A stretch of 22,208 bases of DNA from Candidatus Micrarchaeota archaeon (GTDB lineage: Archaea; Micrarchaeota; Micrarchaeia; Norongarragalinales; UBA8480). The stretch is from assembly GCA_043805855.1 (NCBI GenBank), contig JAZDHP010000044.1, positions 1-22,208 on the forward strand, in the 5' to 3' direction. Made by a program: the position numbers and the translations under genes. Of the stretch, positions 2,956 through 21,726 are shown piece after piece. Within the stretch, counting starts at the first letter, position 1. Each line of letters starts with the position of its first letter. The notes below the pieces were generated by a model. It saw only the letters and a list, made by a program, of their open reading frames with translations, did not search any database and had not been told where the DNA came from.

Positions 2956-5424
2956 CTAAACTGGATCCCAAGCTGCAAGGAAGCCAATCAACTCATCAGC
3001 TGCTGCTTGTGTATCTGCTGCAGTTCTTCCTGCGACACAAAGCTTGTTGCCTTCAACAGTGACAACTGCGCCTTCAGCGCCTTCGTCGCCGAGTTTAGCA
3101 CATTCAGTCATACTGGCTGCAACTGTGTTAACCCACGGTCCACCAATCACGATTTGTGGTTGAGCTGCGTCTGCCTCAGAGTCGAGGACAACTAACGGCT
3201 TGGTTGCTGTGTTCAACTGAGTAACAACTGCGCTACCAGAAGCAATTGCTGCGCCTGATGGAATTGTAATCTTAGTTCCACCAACGTCGCATGCTGTGCC
3301 AGTTGTGCAAGTTATTGTCGTAGTGCCAGCAGTCATGTTAGTGCCTTCAGTGCTCAAAACGTACTGTGCGCGGCCAACTGTATTTGCGTACTTTACAATA
3401 AATTCAGTTCCCGCTGGGGCAGTTGCTACATAGCTTCCACGTGGGGAGTAGTAAGGTACATCTCCAAAGAAGTTTGCAGTTTGGTCAGCTGCTGATCTTG
3501 CAATAGTCGTATAGTTGACCTTTCCAGTAGTTGTTACTGATGGACCATCGTATAAGTGAAGGTCTGTAGATGCGGTAGTACCACCTGCGGTTGTACCAAA
3601 AGCAGCGTAGACTGTAAAGTTACCGTCAACTGCTACTGAGCCACTGTCGTTCAAGATTTCCGGAATAGTGATGTTCATTGAAGAGGTGTTTCCAGGAATG
3701 TTAAATGTTCCTCGAGTGAAGTTACCATCCATAGTTGCGTTAATATACACGTAGGTATCTGAGCCAGTGCCAGGGTAGTAAAACTTAACCGCAGCTGCAT
3801 AACTTTTAACTCCCATTCCTGAATCTGTAGTGGTTCGATATGTTTGTGGCGCATCTGTTGCAGAAGATGAGTTTGTCCAGACACTACTTGCGTTTTGGTA
3901 AACAAAGTAACCAACATATTTACTACAAGCGCCGCCTACATCAGCAGTTCGGTTCTTAACCAAGAGCCTTACCTTGCTAGCTTGGTCGTTTCCAAATTTA
4001 AATGCATCAGCTCTAGAAGCAATAAACTCTACACCAGTATAGTCGCAAGTGACTGTAGTATTGTACCCAATTTGCATGGAATCTAAGTTACCAAAGGTAA
4101 GCTTCAACTCAGTATAATCTGTATCCTTTAAAGTTGATCCCTTATATGTCAATTTGTATCCGGGTGCGCCTTTTATAATGTCTAAAGAATCACCTGGGTT
4201 CAATGAAGTTGTTTCAAGATCGTTTCCAATTTGAATCCTAGTTATAGATGGAGAAGCAGATACGTTACTCGTTGTAAAGTACGTTTGCCACTTGCCATAA
4301 ATTGATTCGTCAATTGATGCGTTCTGTGATAATTTAAGTGAACCAGTTGCGAAGATAATTCTTGCAGTGCTATTTCCACTTTGAGTGTAGAACGAGTCTG
4401 GCACTTGTACGTAAAAGCTACCTAAAACTTTAACTGGCGCAGCTCCCGAAGTTACAGTAACGGTTTCAGCTGTTCCAGCTGCATTGGTTAAAACTAAGCC
4501 AATTGAAGATACTGAAGAAGATCCTTGCGGTGCTGACATTGAGTCAAGTTTAACTTTGTGTCCTTCTGGAGTTGTTATTACTGTTCCAACTGGAATAATT
4601 TGATCAACCGACGCTTTGGATAGTGTAAGTGTACTAATTGTATTTGGAGTAGTTGCAGTTGATTCAGTTATATGAGTAACTAAATAATCTGTACCTAAAA
4701 AGCGTACTTTTACTCCTGCACGATCTAGCCTCGAGTTTGTCGGGCATGCCCCAAGTCCATAAGTTGTGTCAAGACATGACGGTAAACCAGGGCTAAAGGT
4801 TAGAGAATACCATGCTGCTGGATTTCTCAATACATACTTATCAGCAGACGAGCTATAATCAGCCTGCCCAAAGAGATTTACGTATTCGCGTGAAGTTAAA
4901 GATCCAGAATACTTGCCCTTAGTATCAACAGTTCCATCTTTTACTAACGCAGTAGTTGTTGAGGAAATTTCCTTTACATTCATGTTTGCAAGATTGGAAT
5001 TATATGACGGTCTCGTGCCAGTTATATTATAAACTGTATCTGCACTGCTGTCAACTCTGTCGTCTCCAAAGAGTGATGTGAATCCATATGTTCCTGCTGG
5101 GACAGCGTTTGCTGCATTTGTAACTGAAACAGATACTGTTTGATTTGCAGTTGTTCCAGTTGTTGCTGCCGGCGTTGCTGTTGCGCTAGTTGTGTATGCT
5201 TTGTTTGCGATTGCAGCTGCGATGTTGCCTGCTGCGATTGCGTCAGACACGTCTGCTGCTGAACCGAGTACGATTTGTACTTGTGGCGTTCCGTTCGAGT
5301 ATAAACTCGGTACATAATTGCCGAGTCCTTCGTCGACGGTGACCGCTGCTGCTGCAAATGCTGTGCCGATTAAAGCTGCACCTGCTGCGATTGCGGCTAT
5401 TTTCTTGACATTTAAACTCTTCAT
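2956..5424 (-). CDS. Major S-layer protein (Methanococcales/Thermococcales-like S_layer_N and S_layer_C termini)
   Basis: Signal peptide MKSLNVKKIAAIAAGAALIG, N-terminal IVLGSAADVSDAIAAGNIAAAI, C-terminal PLVVLDSEAD...IVIGGPWVNTVA...VAGRTAADT. Thr/Ser/Ala-rich, with a GAGGTG SD motif. Confidence 0.92.
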   Translation of the reverse strand: MKSLNVKKIAAIAAGAALIGTAFAAAAVTVDEGLGNYVPSLYSNGTPQVQIVLGSAADVSDAIAAGNIAAAIANKAYTTSATATPAATTGTTANQTVSVSVTNAANAVPAGTYGFTSLFGDDRVDSSADTVYNITGTRPSYNSNLANMNVKEISSTTTALVKDGTVDTKGKYSGSLTSREYVNLFGQADYSSSADKYVLRNPAAWYSLTFSPGLPSCLDTTYGLGACPTNSRLDRAGVKVRFLGTDYLVTHITESTATTPNTISTLTLSKASVDQIIPVGTVITTPEGHKVKLDSMSAPQGSSSVSSIGLVLTNAAGTAETVTVTSGAAPVKVLGSFYVQVPDSFYTQSGNSTARIIFATGSLKLSQNASIDESIYGKWQTYFTTSNVSASPSITRIQIGNDLETTSLNPGDSLDIIKGAPGYKLTYKGSTLKDTDYTELKLTFGNLDSMQIGYNTTVTCDYTGVEFIASRADAFKFGNDQASKVRLLVKNRTADVGGACSKYVGYFVYQNASSVWTNSSSATDAPQTYRTTTDSGMGVKSYAAAVKFYYPGTGSDTYVYINATMDGNFTRGTFNIPGNTSSMNITIPEILNDSGSVAVDGNFTVYAAFGTTAGGTTASTDLHLYDGPSVTTTGKVNYTTIARSAADQTANFFGDVPYYSPRGSYVATAPAGTEFIVKYANTVGRAQYVLSTEGTNMTAGTTTITCTTGTACDVGGTKITIPSGAAIASGSAVVTQLNTATKPLVVLDSEADAAQPQIVIGGPWVNTVAASMTECAKLGDEGAEGAVVTVEGNKLCVAGRTAADTQAAADELIGFLAAWDPV

Positions 5425-5604
5425 TTCTTTTTATTCCACCTCAATGGATTTTCGGTTTTTTGTCTTTTAGGATTTCATTCCGTTTTTTGTTTTTTTCTAA
5501 AACCTTCAATGTTTTGATGAAGCCATCTCAACTCAGGTACAAACAATATACTGGTGGGATGGTGTCTTTCAAAGACTAAAACCAGTATGTTAAATGTAAC
5601 TAGG

Positions 5605-5617
5605 GTATTTAAACATT
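5605..5617 (-). promoter_or_regulatory. Putative TATA-box promoter of the S-layer gene, implying a 5' UTR of about 160 nt
   Basis: AATGTTTAAATAC on the minus strand, identical to the motif at 816-828. Confidence 0.55.
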
Positions 5618-5779
5618 ACGACTTTCGTCGATTGTACGAGAGTAGTTCGGCGATGAACTAAGTTGGTGTGAAATGTTCATACTTTACCTCTTGTGAAGAT
5701 ATAGAATAATAAGGTGAAGCGCAGTTAAAATATGAGCTAGATAGGCGCAAACAATTTAAACGAGGTTAGACGATAAGCG

Positions 5780-6076
5780 ATGTTATTGGAAGTTGTTAAT
5801 AATACTGAAAAGACAAGTAGCGGTGTTTTTGGACTTTCAACAGACGTTCAAGCCATTATAGTTGGACTGTTGCTTGTGCTTGTAGCTATTTTAGTGTTGT
5901 GGAAGATGCGTAAGTTCATTGTAAATTCAATTCTTGGCGTAATTGCGCTTTTCTTGTTGCAATTCGCAGGTATAACTATTCCGATAAACATAATCACTAT
6001 AATAGTAGCTGGGGTTTTGGGCTTAATTGGAGTAGGAATTATGGTTTTGCTAATTGTTTTAGGGTTTACTTTCTAG
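5780..6076 (+). CDS. Small membrane protein, BofA (pro-sigmaK processing inhibitor)-like family
   Basis: Three hydrophobic segments and the pattern NSILG...IPINIITIIVAGVLGLIGV, typical of BofA-family proteins. Confidence 0.72.
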   Translation: MLLEVVNNTEKTSSGVFGLSTDVQAIIVGLLLVLVAILVLWKMRKFIVNSILGVIALFLLQFAGITIPINIITIIVAGVLGLIGVGIMVLLIVLGFTF

Positions 6077-6105
6077 AATTCAGTTTTTAAGCCTTTATCT
6101 GGAAA

Positions 6106-6462
6106 CTACTTTTTAGCTTTGCTTTTCGGCGCCGGCAACTTTACGTAGTAGACGTCTGAATCAGTTCTTAGGATTACGGGGTCGCCGCGGAATAGCGCGG
6201 GTATGTTTAGCTCGTATGAACCTGGCTCTATTACTCTTATATTTTCCGGGTCGTCGAGATTTATCACAACTGGCTTTTCCTTGCTGAGCTCAATTAGTTG
6301 TTCAGTTATAAGTATTTCAGTAACTTTGGCAGTTGGCAGGCACATTGCTGGCGCGTCGGTTTTAATGAAGTAGAAAATTCTCGAGCCGCAAGTGCACCCT
6401 TTTAGAATTGCTTCTGACTGGTCAGGGTAGCTTTTGTTACATTTCACGCAGGAATGAGGCAT
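6106..6462 (-). CDS. oapC: Zn-ribbon origin-associated protein OapC (DUF2072-like)
   Basis: MPHSCVKC...ILKGCTCGSRIFYF N-terminus and ENIRVIEPGSYELNI C-terminal motif. Lies near oapB and oapA. Confidence 0.88.
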   Translation of the reverse strand: MPHSCVKCNKSYPDQSEAILKGCTCGSRIFYFIKTDAPAMCLPTAKVTEILITEQLIELSKEKPVVINLDDPENIRVIEPGSYELNIPALFRGDPVILRTDSDVYYVKLPAPKSKAKK

Positions 6463-6483
6463 AACAAAAATGAGAGCCAGAAG

Positions 6484-6491
6484 TTTAAATA
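6484..6491 (-). promoter_or_regulatory. TATA box for a leaderless oapC transcript
   Basis: TATTTAAA on the minus strand, 21 nt upstream of ATG 6462, with no SD motif. Confidence 0.5.
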
Positions 6492-6493
6492 AG

Positions 6494-6569
6494 CATAAGG
6501 CAAAGCCTTATGAATTAGACACAAAGCTAAGGGCTTTGTGCTGAAGGCCTGCGGCGACTGAGCGGCCTT
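6494..6569. repeat. Three tandem inverted repeats
   Basis: CATAAGGC-aaa-GCCTTATG (6494-6512); CACAAAGC-taagg-GCTTTGTG (6520-6540); AAGGCC...GGCCTT (6544-6569). Confidence 0.85.
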
Positions 6570-6606
6570 TTAAAGAGATAACGCTATCGGCGGCACTGTA
6601 AAGCAA

Positions 6607-7020
6607 TTAGCGAATCTTTGTCAAATCGCCGTTTATTATAATGGGGCGCGTTGCTTCGATTTCGCTCTTGTAAAATTGAATCTCTGGAATTGGATTCAAG
6701 AGAAAGATTTTCTTGTTTAAAACGTGTGCGAAGCCGATTTCGAGGAACGTGTTACCGCCAATGTAGTTTTTCACCCCGCGGCGATCATAATTTAGTACAA
6801 GTATGGCATCGCTTAGTTTGATTTTTTCCCAGAATTCGCGCATCGCGTCTTTTTCGTTTTTGTGATAAAGGGTTAGCTTTTCTTTTTCGCTTTCTGTTTT
6901 GCCAACGTAAGCGTCGGAAAATCCAGACACAAAAACAACGTGCCCCATTTCCTCAAGTTGCTTTTTAGTTTCAAGCATTTTCTCAGTGAAGACCATACTA
7001 GTGCAAATAGCGATTTTCAT
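6607..7020 (-). CDS. Nucleoside 2-deoxyribosyltransferase (NDT)-like Rossmannoid protein
   Basis: N-terminal strand KIAICTS, then SDAILVLN...YIGGNTFLEIGFAHVLNKKIF, matching the NDT pattern D-x(n)-G-T-x-x-E-x-G-x-A-x(3)-K with a candidate catalytic Glu. Confidence 0.65.
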   Translation of the reverse strand: MKIAICTSMVFTEKMLETKKQLEEMGHVVFVSGFSDAYVGKTESEKEKLTLYHKNEKDAMREFWEKIKLSDAILVLNYDRRGVKNYIGGNTFLEIGFAHVLNKKIFLLNPIPEIQFYKSEIEATRPIIINGDLTKIR

Positions 7021-7029
7021 TTTTTATTA

Positions 7030-7245
7030 TCACTTTAGCATTGGTGCGGCTTCTAGGTTTTTTATGTTTCGTAACTCGGCGATTTTGGCTTTGCCATTTG
7101 GCATTTCAAGTAACCGATCGTAAAACGCAAGTGCTTTTTGAAACTGCGCATCTATGAACTGGGAATGAATGCTTTTCCACTCGCCGTTGCTTTCCCTGAC
7201 ATGTTTAGCCCAGCGTTCAATTTGTTCTATTCTGCTTGGATCCAT
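7030..7245 (-). CDS. Small helical hypothetical protein, candidate partner or antitoxin of the nucleotidyltransferase
   Basis: 71 aa (IERWAKHVRESNGEWKSIHSQFIDAQF). Overlaps the upstream gene by 29 nt and ends 9 nt before the next start codon. Confidence 0.7.
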   Translation of the reverse strand: MDPSRIEQIERWAKHVRESNGEWKSIHSQFIDAQFQKALAFYDRLLEMPNGKAKIAELRNIKNLEAAPMLK

Positions 7246-7804
7246 TATTTAGCCTCAGTTTAATTATTAGTTGTTTTATACTATTTATCTTTTCTTCGTT
7301 TATTTGTCCTTCAAACACCCGTCTTAAATGTAATGCGTCTTCAAGATCCTTGTCACTTTTTAACAGTTCTTCTTTAAACGCAAGGTTATACTCAACTGAA
7401 CTGAACCAAACAGGTAGGCCAGTAATGGGAATTTTTATCCTTTCTTTTAACTGCATTTCATCTAGGATATCTTTAGCCATTTTTAGCTCTATTTCGGGCA
7501 ATACTTGATTTTTCAATATATAGCGAACTGGCAAATTGTCAGCCAAGTAAAGAGTATAAATGTGAGTTGGATCATTTGATTGCACGCATTCGAACCCTTC
7601 TTTTTCAAGGGCGTAATGCAAAGTTAGAAAGTCTGAAAGGGAAATTTTTTGCGTTATTATGTCAATGTCTTCAGTCCCTCGACTTCTTCCAGTTGAAATT
7701 GCCACGTACCCAGATACAACTATATACTCACAGTGACGTTCAAGTACGCTGCAGAATTTTATGCATACGTCGTCTAAAATGTTCCTGTCGCTTATGAGCC
7801 GCAT
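7217..7804 (-). CDS. Pol-beta superfamily nucleotidyltransferase (DUF2204/AbiEii-like)
   Basis: YIVVSGYVA...GRSRGTEDIDII (G-x-x-A...R-x-T-x-D-x-D), a third acidic strand PEIELK, and a C-terminal K...KDLEDA helix characteristic of this clade. Confidence 0.75.
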   Translation of the reverse strand: MRLISDRNILDDVCIKFCSVLERHCEYIVVSGYVAISTGRSRGTEDIDIITQKISLSDFLTLHYALEKEGFECVQSNDPTHIYTLYLADNLPVRYILKNQVLPEIELKMAKDILDEMQLKERIKIPITGLPVWFSSVEYNLAFKEELLKSDKDLEDALHLRRVFEGQINEEKINSIKQLIIKLRLNNGSKQNRTN

Positions 7805-7848
7805 AAATTACTTAGGATAATTAGATTAAAAATACCACAAGCAGCAGT

Positions 7849-8199
7849 TTATTTTTGCGTTAACAGATTAAGCTTATTGGGGTCTCTTTTAATTTGCTTT
7901 ACGAGTTTCGACGGACCGACTACAGTTAACCCACTTGTTTTGCCGCCAAGTAGTTTTACAAGTTGGGATTTGAGGTCAAGCGTCGTGCTGCCTAGTGTTG
8001 CTACTTCTATTCCTGCGAAGTTTTTGTCAACTTGTTCCATTGTTAGCTTAATTAGTTGTGTTTCTTCAGCTGGAGAAAGTGGTTCTTCTAGTACGATTAT
8101 TTTGTCTCCTTTTTTCACGATATTGAGAATGTGAGTTAGCTTTTCGTCGTTTTGCTTGTCTTGCATTGCTTTGGATGATAGAAATTCAATTGCAACCAT
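7849..8199 (-). CDS. oapB: Origin-associated protein OapB (DUF2073-like)
   Basis: IIVLEEPLSPAEETQLIKLTMEQV...FAGIEV...GLTVVGPS...IKRDP. Directly downstream of oapA. Confidence 0.9.
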   Translation of the reverse strand: MVAIEFLSSKAMQDKQNDEKLTHILNIVKKGDKIIVLEEPLSPAEETQLIKLTMEQVDKNFAGIEVATLGSTTLDLKSQLVKLLGGKTSGLTVVGPSKLVKQIKRDPNKLNLLTQK

Positions 8200-8209
8200 A
8201 TGTTTATAA

Positions 8210-8830
8210 TCACACTTTTTTCGCTACTTCTTCATATAACTTAGGCATGTTTTCGCCGGTTAACGCAGATACGGGTACGACGGAGTGCTGTGGAAACGCG
8301 TCTTTGATTTTGTCAGGGCGGGCTTTTTTCAAGTCCATTTTGTTTGCAACTATTATCACTGGTATTTTGCGCGCTTCAAGGTTTGCAAGAATTGTTATGT
8401 TCACCTGAGTATAGGGGTCTTTAGTTGCGTCCATTACTACAAACGCTGCGTCGACGTGTTCAAGCCACTTTATTGCTTCGATTATTCCTTTTGTCGCTTC
8501 TTTTGCTCGCTGCTGTGCCTCGTCTTTCGAAAGCCCATGTTCAATGAACTCGCGGTAATCTACCTTCGTTGCAATTCCAGGCATGTCGAGGATATTCATC
8601 GTTAGTAGTTTGCCGCCGGCTTTTATTGCAACGCGTTCTTTTTTCTGTACTTCTCGCGTTTCGTGAGGTATTTCTGAAACGTTGCTTAGTGGTTGGCCTG
8701 TCCAGTCAATGCAAATGCGGTTAGCGATGCTTGATTTGCCGGCGTTTACTGGCCCGTAGATGCCTAGTGATATTGATTTGCGTGAGTTGAAAAATCCTAG
8801 AAAAAAATTAAGTAACTTGCGGAAAGGCAT
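8210..8830 (-). CDS. oapA: Era-like GTPase, origin-associated protein OapA
   Basis: G1 GPVNAGKS, G2 IPHETRE, G3 DMPG, G4 NKMD, G5 SAL, plus the family motifs AKEATKGIIEAIKWL and DPYTQVN. Confidence 0.93.
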   Translation of the reverse strand: MPFRKLLNFFLGFFNSRKSISLGIYGPVNAGKSSIANRICIDWTGQPLSNVSEIPHETREVQKKERVAIKAGGKLLTMNILDMPGIATKVDYREFIEHGLSKDEAQQRAKEATKGIIEAIKWLEHVDAAFVVMDATKDPYTQVNITILANLEARKIPVIIVANKMDLKKARPDKIKDAFPQHSVVPVSALTGENMPKLYEEVAKKV

Positions 8831-8890
8831 TGTAAGAAAAAAACCCCTTTTGGTATTTGTGGAAAGAGTACGTTGAAAAAGTTAATATAG

Positions 8891-8961
8891 CTTACACTTC
8901 GTCTAGCGAAGTGTAAGGCTTTAACAAAGCAGAAAATTTAGATAAATGCTGCTTTGTTAAA
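8891..8961. repeat. Two tandem perfect inverted repeats
   Basis: CTTACACTTCG-tctag-CGAAGTGTAAG (11 bp stem, 8891-8917) and TTTAACAAAGCAG...CTGCTTTGTTAAA (13 bp stem, 8920-8961). Confidence 0.9.
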
Positions 8962-8986
8962 TAACAATATGCTGCCACATAGGAAG

Positions 8987-9340
8987 TTATTTTTTCAAAA
9001 CTAGTTTTTCGTAAACAAAAGGCATTGCAATTCTTTCAATTGTTTGCACAATCATGTACAGTGAGAACATCGCAGTTACTCCTTGCCGCGCGATTATTCC
9101 AACTATTATCAAGGTTAACGTTATGGACATTGCTAAAAGTAATATGGAAAAATTCGTGGCGTTTGCATTTGCCGTTGGACTTTGTTTATAGTAGAAATGA
9201 GTGAAAACAAAGGCAACTGCAATGTTTAGCACAAGCATTGCGTTTTTGGAATTTTCATTGCCAACAAAGAGGAAAAGCACAAAGCTGAGAATAAACGCGG
9301 CTAGAACAGTTGCAAAGCTGTAAAGCAATTCGTTTTTCAT
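8987..9340 (-). CDS. Small hypothetical membrane protein (about 4 TM helices)
   Basis: 117 aa ORF with four hydrophobic stretches; no family recognised. Confidence 0.65.
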   Translation of the reverse strand: MKNELLYSFATVLAAFILSFVLFLFVGNENSKNAMLVLNIAVAFVFTHFYYKQSPTANANATNFSILLLAMSITLTLIIVGIIARQGVTAMFSLYMIVQTIERIAMPFVYEKLVLKK

Positions 9341-9402
9341 TTTTAGTTTTCAACGTCGTTTGTTACTTTCTTTCTTTTTATTTTGCCAATATCTTTATCA
9401 GC

Positions 9403-14105: not shown

Positions 14106-14375
14106 TCATAATTTCAGTCCACCTTGTTTTAATTGTTCCAGTTCAGCTGGAGGCCTGTAAATCCACACAACTCCCTTTATAGTTATGAGAATTTTACCAC
14201 TTTTTTGCAAGTAGTCAAGCACTTGAAGAAGCGTTGCATGCATCACTTGGCGCGGTAATTTGCGCTTTAGCTCCGAAACTTTAATTATTTGCTTTGCGCT
14301 GCGTAGAGTGTGCTCTATCATTAAAACAGTGTTCAAAGTCGGGGAATGCATTACCTGCATTTGTTGAGTAGTCAT
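14106..14375 (-). CDS. Small winged-helix DNA-binding protein (putative regulator)
   Basis: PTLNTVLMIE...SELKRKLP..VMHATLLQVLDYLQKSGKI...GVVWI fits a helix-turn-helix plus wing pattern. Confidence 0.7.
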   Translation of the reverse strand: MTTQQMQVMHSPTLNTVLMIEHTLRSAKQIIKVSELKRKLPRQVMHATLLQVLDYLQKSGKILITIKGVVWIYRPPAELEQLKQGGLKL

Positions 14376-18555: not shown

Positions 18556-19407
18556 TCATAAAAGTGCAAGCGCAAGAAAAGCAACAACACCGAACAGCAA
18601 AGCGAAAAGCGTGTAGTTTCTACACTGTTTCAACATTACTACTTCTTGGCTTTTAAGCGCTTTGTAAATCGTTAACAATAATAACAAAACACAAGGCACT
18701 AGGAAAACAAAGTACGTAAGAGAAAAACTGCTTAGTAGCGGCACAATAGACAACGCGATTGCAGCTAAGATGAAAACCGCAGATAGCACAACAGTTGCCT
18801 TTGCGCCGATTAACATTGGAAGAGTAGTTGCACCTATTTTCTTATCGCCTTTGACGTCGCGCAGCGTTATTAACAACTCGCGACCGACCCCAACGAGAAA
18901 CGCAATTGAACAAATTAAAACAACTAATTGCACAACAACTGGAGAAACTGCTAGATTTCCATAGAGAAACGGCGCTGCCATTGACAGCGCGATAAACGCG
19001 TTTCCCAACAACGGGAGTTTCTTCAGAATTGGATCATATGCTATTGAAAGCACAACGTAGACAAGCGCCAGCGCGAACACAAGTAAATTGATAAGATATG
19101 TAAGCGCAAGGCCAACTACGAATAGAACAAACGCAGCATAAAGCGCGTGGCTCTTGGCAATTGCCCCGTTTACAAGTGGACGATCTTTTCTCGCATTCGC
19201 TTTATCGGTTTCGTAGCCAAAATAATCATTCAACGCAAACGCAGCTAGCGTTATCAACGCTGGGCCAAGCGCAGGAAAGAGAAGAGAAAGCGAAAAGCTA
19301 CGTACGACGAGAAGCTGTCCAACAATCACGCCGATAAAAGTAATCAACGCGTGTTCAGTGCGGAACAGCGAATGCCAATTTAAAATTATTTCTGAAAGAT
19401 TTTTCAT
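18556..19407 (-). CDS. UbiA-family prenyltransferase, DGGGP synthase-like
   Basis: NDYFGYETDKAN..DRPL..G, LKKLPLLGN and RE.....RDVKGD...GATTLP; multi-pass membrane protein. Confidence 0.85.
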   Translation of the reverse strand: MKNLSEIILNWHSLFRTEHALITFIGVIVGQLLVVRSFSLSLLFPALGPALITLAAFALNDYFGYETDKANARKDRPLVNGAIAKSHALYAAFVLFVVGLALTYLINLLVFALALVYVVLSIAYDPILKKLPLLGNAFIALSMAAPFLYGNLAVSPVVVQLVVLICSIAFLVGVGRELLITLRDVKGDKKIGATTLPMLIGAKATVVLSAVFILAAIALSIVPLLSSFSLTYFVFLVPCVLLLLLTIYKALKSQEVVMLKQCRNYTLFALLFGVVAFLALALL

Positions 19408-20018
19408 TCTAAGTTAAACCTGTAAATAGATTGGTTCTTTAAACGCTTTACATTTGTAAACCCTGCATTTTTCATACTCCCCGTAGCATGAGAAACGCAC
19501 TGGTCATACCATTCGCCAAATACGCGAATTGGCACCTCTCGAGGTAAAGATAATTGCTTTTGCACTTCACTTGCAACATTATGCGGCGTAGAATCTAACA
19601 CTAACAATCGTCGTCCAAGTTTACTGTGCGCAAATTTAATTAAACTCTCTTGCAGGGAATCTGTTTTATTCGTAACGTTAACTTCGTCTCGTAAAATTAC
19701 TAAAACCGCATGCGGAGTTTTTGAAATGCGCTTTATTTTATTACGATATAACCGATCAATCACTTCTTGTTTTGGAACTACATATTCATTATCTGCAGGC
19801 AACCCCATAGCCAACCTTGGCTTCGCCATTTCTATTGCAATATTCTTTAATCTAGCTCGCGGCTCAACTGCATTAAATTCATGAGTTTCTCTTTTAGCCA
19901 ATGAAACTGCCTCTGGGTATGCAAAATTGCTAGCAATAGCAAAATGTGGGTGCACCAGCACGTGGAGTTCAGTTACTTCGCGCTTTTGCGGTTTTCCATT
20001 TGTCGTCTTTTCCGGCAT
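19404..20018 (-). CDS. Hypothetical protein, possibly isochorismatase/cysteine hydrolase-like fold
   Basis: 204 aa ORF with LHVLVHP and IRVFGEWYDQCV; ATGA overlap with the UbiA-family gene. Confidence 0.6.
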   Translation of the reverse strand: MPEKTTNGKPQKREVTELHVLVHPHFAIASNFAYPEAVSLAKRETHEFNAVEPRARLKNIAIEMAKPRLAMGLPADNEYVVPKQEVIDRLYRNKIKRISKTPHAVLVILRDEVNVTNKTDSLQESLIKFAHSKLGRRLLVLDSTPHNVASEVQKQLSLPREVPIRVFGEWYDQCVSHATGSMKNAGFTNVKRLKNQSIYRFNLE

Positions 20019-21183: not shown

Positions 21184-21726
21184 ATGGTCGTGGCGCGTAA
21201 ATACATAAGAGAAGCGGCAGTTGGTTTACATGCAGAAGTTAGCTTTGAACCAGTTTCAGATGGAAAGAGACTTGAATTTACTTTTTCACTTACCCAGCGG
21301 CTTGGAAAAAGATCCGCTTTTGAATTTTTCGTTCCCTTGACAGATGCACAAGTGCGAGAAATTGCAACTTATCGCCAGCGAGTGCCTGAAAACCGTGCTC
21401 TTGCACGCGCGGCAGTAACTTTGGATAACGAAACGCGAACTTTAACTTGGCGTTCTTTCTACCCGCATGGTTTAGAAAGGCAAACTGACCTCGAAACAGC
21501 ACACGCGCCAATTAGACGGGGAATCGCAACTGCACTTCACTATGCAATTACAAAGTTTCTTGCGGACAATTACGAACTCCACCACATTAGACACGATAAC
21601 CGCATGCCCCTGGAACGAGAAGAGCATTTACGCAAAATGGGAATCAACCCGCGTGCGCACTATAAAATCACACAATACTACGAAATTGTTAAACGCTACG
21701 CTGAGAGAAAATTAGTTACTTCTTGA
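21184..21726 (+). CDS. Hypothetical protein with a GNAT motif A-like segment
   Basis: IRRGIATAL resembles the acetyl-CoA-binding motif R-x-x-G-x-A, and LRKMG resembles the motif B helix. Starts 10 nt after cdc6. Confidence 0.55.
   Translation: MVVARKYIREAAVGLHAEVSFEPVSDGKRLEFTFSLTQRLGKRSAFEFFVPLTDAQVREIATYRQRVPENRALARAAVTLDNETRTLTWRSFYPHGLERQTDLETAHAPIRRGIATALHYAITKFLADNYELHHIRHDNRMPLEREEHLRKMGINPRAHYKITQYYEIVKRYAERKLVTS

Follow-up and report, generated by a model that had tools for sequence, protein, structure and literature searches.

The window analysed here, 22,208 nucleotides long, corresponds to contig C44 in an archaeal genome of 1.03 Mb with 92% completeness. Between two housekeeping genes it carries three co-directional open reading frames preceded by a TATA-like element. 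The features, in the order in which they are read, are the following.

7849..8199, minus strand: oapB (arvB), PF09846; flank upstream of the insertion
7825..7832, minus strand: TATA box TTTTTAAT, positions -28 to -21 relative to the start codon of the nucleotidyltransferase gene (ATG at 7804)
7217..7804, minus strand: nucleotidyltransferase (NTase) gene, 195 aa, predicted MenT1-like fold; predicted toxin
7030..7245, minus strand: small helical partner gene, 71 aa, three-helix, basic; predicted antitoxin
6607..7020, minus strand: NDT-like gene of the PF05014 superfamily type, 137 aa, with a conserved E94; outside the two-gene module
6106..6462, minus strand: oapC (arvC), PF09845; downstream flank with its own TATA-like motif at -27

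The NTase and partner frames overlap by 29 nt (7217-7245), and 9 nt (7021-7029) separate the partner frame from the NDT-like frame. Both this arrangement and the TATA-like sequence upstream of the ATG agree with an earlier interpretation made from the letters of the DNA (the sequence-only reading). The same reading had described the three genes as inserted between housekeeping genes, which holds because oapB and oapC lie only 80 nt apart in the same-genus genome G002. In another genome of the genus, G001, an unrelated 668-aa gene occupies this position, so that the oapB-oapC junction accepts unrelated inserts. The oap operon now bears the name arvABC, after its part in forming vesicles in Haloferax (PMC10927574). 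None of the three genes was found at 29 oapB loci of relatives, 27 of which were covered by 1.5-kb flanks. Around the insert, neither terminal repeats nor target-site repeats stood out, and there was no Rfam match within 5400-9400.

In 60 of 78 homologous loci, the start of a TATA-like motif lies 25-32 nt ahead of the NTase ATG; in a control window such a motif was found in 12 of 78, and shuffles gave a mean of 9.4 and a maximum of 18. SD-like motifs were detected at 3/78 NTase loci. The kept position of the TATA-like motif, together with the scarcity of SD-like motifs, suggests that the NTase-partner module is transcribed from its own promoter as a leaderless transcript. The motif scan found no TATA-like motif ahead of the NDT-like gene, and a sigma-70 scan, with a model unsuited to archaea, stayed at chance level. 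As for base composition, the GC counts that had been taken as a sign of an AT-rich NTase gene (15/60 and 20/60, versus 29/60 in oapA) are exact, and the gene is mildly AT-rich. Whole-gene GC is 36.1% for the NTase, 43.1% for the small partner gene and 40.1% for the NDT-like gene. Since the NTase value is in the 4th percentile of 854 ORFs but its GC3 in the 27th, the composition signal is weak.

Some other elements of the region were recorded on the way. Three stacked hairpins lie between the NDT-like gene and oapC (6463-6606, core 6544-6573). Their 30-nt core recurs with 86-97% identity on contigs C6, C10, C17, C9, C21 and C28 as well as in G001 and G002, twice directly ahead of apparent tRNA 5' ends. 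Another palindromic repeat, located upstream of oapA (8885-8965), is present on at least nine other contigs and matches G002 at 26/26 nt. The 668-aa gene at the junction in G001 (L140:4274-6280, contig G001:C37) is of membrane type; neither this gene nor a short gene after oapC on the same contig (L140:3519-3794) has a Pfam match at E <= 1e-4. Four window ORFs, 19404-20018 (minus), 21184-21726 (plus), 8987-9340 (minus) and 14106-14375 (minus), are without a convincing Pfam match.

The NTase and its small partner

Homologues of the NTase are numerous: one search returned 406, a profile search 864 clusters, and 489 loci were located in GTDB genomes. The named close homologues belong to Micrarchaeota, Woesearchaeota, Pacearchaeota, Aenigmarchaeota and Altiarchaeota, which makes a DPANN host likely. 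The distribution is patchy, with 44 full-length copies in 41 of 200 genomes sampled across the phylum, and the word patterns used retrieved no relative from viral contigs. No NCBIfam model names any of the three genes, nor does any model in the copy of Pfam used name the NTase. The nearest named Pfam families, on which the Atlas agrees, are DUF6036 (PF19502; 4/128 members) and DUF2204 (PF09970; 2/128), while AbiEii (PF08843) is absent from the Pfam matches of the 128 members.

The fold of the NTase was predicted by AF2 (pLDDT 92). MenT1 was the top PDB match of the model in Foldseek (E 3.3e-7, TM 0.65) and also ranked first in VIA (Z 15.2, rmsd 3.5, 170 residues aligned), leading the second-best match by 3.9 Z units. 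LnuA (Z 11.3), MenT3 (11.2), ANT(2'') (10.9) and MenT4 (9.4) followed. A wide NTase profile retrieved the MenT1 sequence at E 5.8e-4, although identity between the two proteins is about 15%. Foldseek, VIA and profile results thus bear out the assignment to the MenT/AbiEii structural class made in the sequence-only reading. Its other suggestion, nucleotide signalling of a CBASS or retron-like kind, finds no support in the same comparison: CD-NTases reached Z 5.8-6.1 over about 105 residues, against 15.2 for MenT1, and no CBASS-type effector is conserved beside the NTase across loci.

R42, T44, D46 and D48 of the NTase align to R37, T39, D41 and D43 of MenT1 (numbered as in PMC11375011; the chain numbering in the alignment is one lower) and are conserved in 127-128 of 128 members. 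Position 44 is T or S in 128/128 close and 58/60 wide homologues. In MenT1, D41 binds Mg and T39 is auto-phosphorylated upon MenA1 binding (PMC11375011). K144, K152, D153 and D156 are near invariant, the first and the last two strictly so; K144, D153 and D156 were matched to MenT1 K137, D149 and D152 by motif only. The spacing of the motif places an apparent serine, S150, where MenT1 has R146.

The small gene accompanies the NTase with great regularity. Among the best 80 of the 489 GTDB loci, it was found directly downstream in 78 by tblastn and in 79 by profile; at the 80th locus the contig stops 51 nt past the NTase stop codon. It was likewise present in 18 of 19 loci of relatives, including NTases that are just 33-40% identical; the single exception is a fragment. 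All 44 full-length NTases in the 200 genomes have it, 41 according to the search tables and three by inspection, one of which was judged by eye only. The two genes overlap in 69 of 78 loci, in most of them by 4 nt (median -4 nt). The genes around the 80 NTase loci are otherwise unrelated and mostly housekeeping, with the largest shared family at 6/80 and no conserved upstream or third gene. The NTase and the 71-aa gene form a strict two-gene module; a three-gene cassette is not supported. Of what a neighbourhood comparison had been proposed to reveal, conservation of the pair was therefore found and conservation of the triplet was not.

The partner has no match in the copy of Pfam used, no PDB sequence match and no PADLOC match. 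All ten of its best named matches in the Atlas agree on DUF8150 (PF26477), which that Pfam copy does not report; we regard this as a lead only, as the feature score of 0.82 is under the bar of 0.9. Median pI values are 9.9 for the partner, which is basic, and 5.6 for the acidic enzyme. Identities of enzymes and partners correlate over 82 pairs (rho 0.74; L010, L017 and L018 omitted), a value that host relatedness alone can produce. Extra partner copies that lack an enzyme of their own stand near an intact pair at L116:4897-5118, L106:5579-5785 and L242:1577-1813.

The 59 partner matches in the 200-genome sample comprised 41 behind an intact enzyme, 8 behind a broken one and 10 without any enzyme; two of these ten were near contig ends and eight away from them. 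The partners inspected beside broken or absent enzymes have open frames, and the sample contained no full-length enzyme lacking a partner. Survival of the partner where the enzyme is broken or missing, with no case of the reverse in this sample, is the pattern that we would expect, by inference, of a toxin and its antitoxin. As for the proposal of a toxin with a 71-aa antitoxin acting with a nucleotide-cleaving enzyme, the first half agrees with a pair conserved as expected, and the coupling falls away.

In some members, the two proteins are joined. In P0244 (3 cluster members) and P0245, which are 43% identical to one another, one ORF spans enzyme, linker and partner. Scanning metagenomes with these two as seeds gave 12 fused loci out of 80, in a set biased to paired loci (partner match in 76/80); two of the fusions are frameshifted inside the enzyme, and all fused loci may represent one lineage. 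The fused proteins keep the catalytic motifs. An AF2 model of P0245 (272 residues) has a pTM of 0.88, a disordered linker and a partner domain at pLDDT 89-96. Gene fusion and this single model, built without a decoy control, suggest that the partner domain docks on the enzyme. We also considered a split MenT3 and rejected it: adding the fused partner domain lengthens the MenT3 alignment only from about 173 to 180, that is by about 7 residues.

The fusions also bear on an alternative to which we assign a minor but real share of probability, an obligate two-subunit enzyme. Here, the basic partner would be a subunit that activates the enzyme or binds its substrate, or would itself be the acceptor, in an accessory and non-toxic nucleotidylation of RNA, protein or a small molecule. 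Fusions that retain catalytic motifs and pack in the model would suit it, as would the charge difference within the pair, the enzyme-first order with overlapping genes (fit for 1:1 synthesis), the housekeeping neighbours and the closeness of LnuA and ANT(2'') in structure. It is at odds with the open-frame partners beside eight broken enzymes and the eight that stand alone while full-length enzymes are never partnerless, with the patchy presence, with the distance in Z between MenT1 and all other matches, and with the lack of correspondence between the partner domain and the C-terminal domain of MenT3.

The NDT-like gene

The family of the NDT-like protein is large (4910 matches), and PF05014 is matched by 29 of 58 members at E <= 0.001, by the window protein below the curated cut-off. 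E94, which we take to be the position of the catalytic nucleophile, is conserved in the family. No PDB sequence relative was found, PADLOC matched 0/58 members, and the word patterns used gave no relative on viral contigs.

The sequence-only reading had joined this gene to the other two in a three-gene cassette, in which NTase, small protein and NDT-like effector would work together, either by pairing a toxin with an enzyme that cleaves nucleotides or in an antiviral system based on nucleotide signalling. Co-directional genes, the gap of 9 nt and the missing TATA-like motif before the NDT-like gene make read-through plausible, and a distant NDT-like gene does lie 0.8-2.3 kb from the NTase in 3 of the 80 metagenome loci (L144, L150 and L155). 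At the level of conservation, however, the cassette is refuted. The NDT profile found nothing near the NTase in 19 and 80 genome loci (0/99), and in the reverse test the NTase and partner profiles matched 0/24 NDT loci (1.5-kb flanks). The three metagenome cases are one fused-type lineage with the NDT homologue on the opposite strand; in L144 and L150 a HAD gene intervenes, and both of these sequences were part of the NDT profile. With salvage-type neighbours, the PADLOC result and CD-NTases at Z 6.1 or less also against it, we consider joint action of the three genes highly improbable.

Across the phylum, the NDT-like gene was found in 9 of 200 genomes, four of which also have the NTase, on a different contig or 75 kb off. 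Of the 80 NTase loci, 50 were represented by genomes searched with the NDT profile, which matched in 9/50. In the same-genus genomes G002 and G003, an orthologue (84% and 80%) lies behind a DUF373 gene in the absence of an NTase, and the window genome has a different gene at that place. The sequence-only reading was right to suggest a separate arrival for the NDT-like gene. In this genome, the oapB-oapC junction would have received both the pair and the genus-resident NDT-like gene. The latter is a neighbour outside the module; it is possibly transcribed here together with the pair by read-through, which would not indicate a shared function. Its exclusion spares tests of a cassette that does not exist.

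The gene likely encodes, by prediction, a nucleotide salvage or sanitising enzyme. Counted over preselected families only, the neighbours of its relatives included nucleoside phosphorylase (4 loci), Maf (3), phosphoribosyltransferase (3), HAD (3), ITPase (2) and YfbR (1). A string of phosphorylase, Maf, NDT-like and phosphoribosyltransferase genes recurs in L252, L254, L256 and L257, except that Maf is absent in L257 and the contig ends in L256; as a candidate operon for purine salvage, this string would give the NDT family its place. In the NDT-like genes next to the HAD gene (L150:4556-4936 and L144:4793-5164), the conserved glutamate is apparently absent.

Comparison with known systems

The closest known system is MenAT1 (Rv0078B-Rv0078A; MenT1 PDB 8AN4/8AN5), which consists of a DUF1814-type NTase toxin and a 68-aa helical antitoxin. 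Besides having MenT1 as its best structural and profile match, the archaeal pair resembles MenAT1 in its sizes (enzyme about 195 aa, partner about 70 aa), in a helical partner that lacks a DNA-binding domain, and in the R-x-T-x-D-x-D motif with the phospho-acceptor threonine. In MenAT1 a single antitoxin helix can suffice (PMC11375011). On these grounds, we think that the NTase and its partner probably form a toxin-antitoxin pair of the MenAT1 kind in which the gene order is reversed. By analogy with MenT1, the NTase would be toxic by adding nucleotides to tRNA ends and thereby stalling translation; the small helical protein would bind the NTase and keep the enzyme off, possibly via auto-phosphorylation of T44.

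There are also differences, several of which count against the MenAT1-like reading. The archaeal pair is enzyme-first, and at all paired loci the partner either follows downstream or is fused to the C-terminus, whereas menA1 is upstream of menT in 15/21 cases (PMC10435456). MenAT1 forms a 2:1 complex, but natural fusions fix a 1:1 ratio in some members while keeping their motifs, and in these there is no separate antitoxin that could be lost. The promoter is of the archaeal TATA type and the transcript likely leaderless. The partner has no detectable relation to MenA1: its profile failed to retrieve 8AN5 at E <= 10, although short helical proteins can diverge past detection. At such low identity to MenT1, and with antibiotic adenylyltransferases as the next matches, the substrate need not be tRNA; in addition, the R146 position is apparently S150, and the loci have mostly housekeeping neighbours instead of defence islands. 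Because the gene order differs and no MenA1 homologue could be shown, we did not file the pair as a MenAT1 member. It may overlap PDC-M21 and DUF8150.

AbiE, MenAT3 and MenAT4 combine an AbiEii (PF08843) NTase with an AbiEi-type wHTH antitoxin. They have the NTase class in common with the archaeal pair, but its enzyme is about 100 aa shorter and has no conserved upstream gene: the AbiEi-type antitoxin is absent there, the place being taken by oapB in the window and by unrelated genes at the 80 loci. In NDT-effector retrons (Ec86 type), a reverse transcriptase and msr-msd adjoin the effector. The window differs in that oapB and oapC flank the genes, in the absence of an Rfam match around them and in the lack of PADLOC matches among NDT members.

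The shared structural class leads to another reading, antiviral abortive infection, in which a viral cue would free the enzyme from its partner and translation would halt, so that a toxin-antitoxin mechanism would serve a defence role. PADLOC matched the NTase weakly to PDC-M21B (E 0.003 for the window protein; 29/128 members) and to AbiEii in 1/128; a description of PDC-M21 was not found. DPANN genomes are reported to be enriched in AbiE (PMC12988326). As neither clustering nor inspection by eye revealed an enrichment of defence neighbours at the 80 loci, and PADLOC does not match the partner, we regard this role as doubtful. A new archaeal class of NTase switch is likewise improbable in our view: the helical domain would be a gate or sensor instead of an expendable antitoxin. 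Made together with an intact tRNA-targeting enzyme or fused to it in every case, the domain would restrain the enzyme until a viral or host-contact cue, so that DPANN symbionts would have a dormancy or abortive-infection device of one or two genes.

No description of the pair was found in the literature covered, mostly at abstract level, and the supplements to PMC10435456 and PMC12988326 could list members. In the portion available of a review of DPANN dark matter, a single MNT-HEPN fusion is named (PMC6393860). With a full-length copy in about a fifth of the sampled phylum genomes and neither gene named by Pfam, NCBIfam or PADLOC, the pair is a common unannotated DPANN module. If it is MenAT1-like, archaea too would have tRNA-tailing toxins and partner-induced auto-phosphorylation, here with a partner of independent kind and the gene order reversed.

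In the same phylum, NTases of the DUF6036 type (L246-L249) have a gene of 59-104 aa upstream, unnamed by Pfam, which is the MenAT1 order. DUF6036/DUF2204 thus differ from the present pair: in the four distant members inspected, the upstream small gene has no profile similarity to the partner. Nor did hhalign support homology between the two (probability 0.4%), in a weak test with 4 sequences. One of these upstream small genes likewise failed to retrieve MenA1.

The natural fusions are a single-chain handle for structure determination and for the question of what switches on a toxin that is joined to its inhibitor. One of them, a protein of 296 aa (L147:3001-3891), consists of the enzyme followed by two tandem partner units, one per subfamily.
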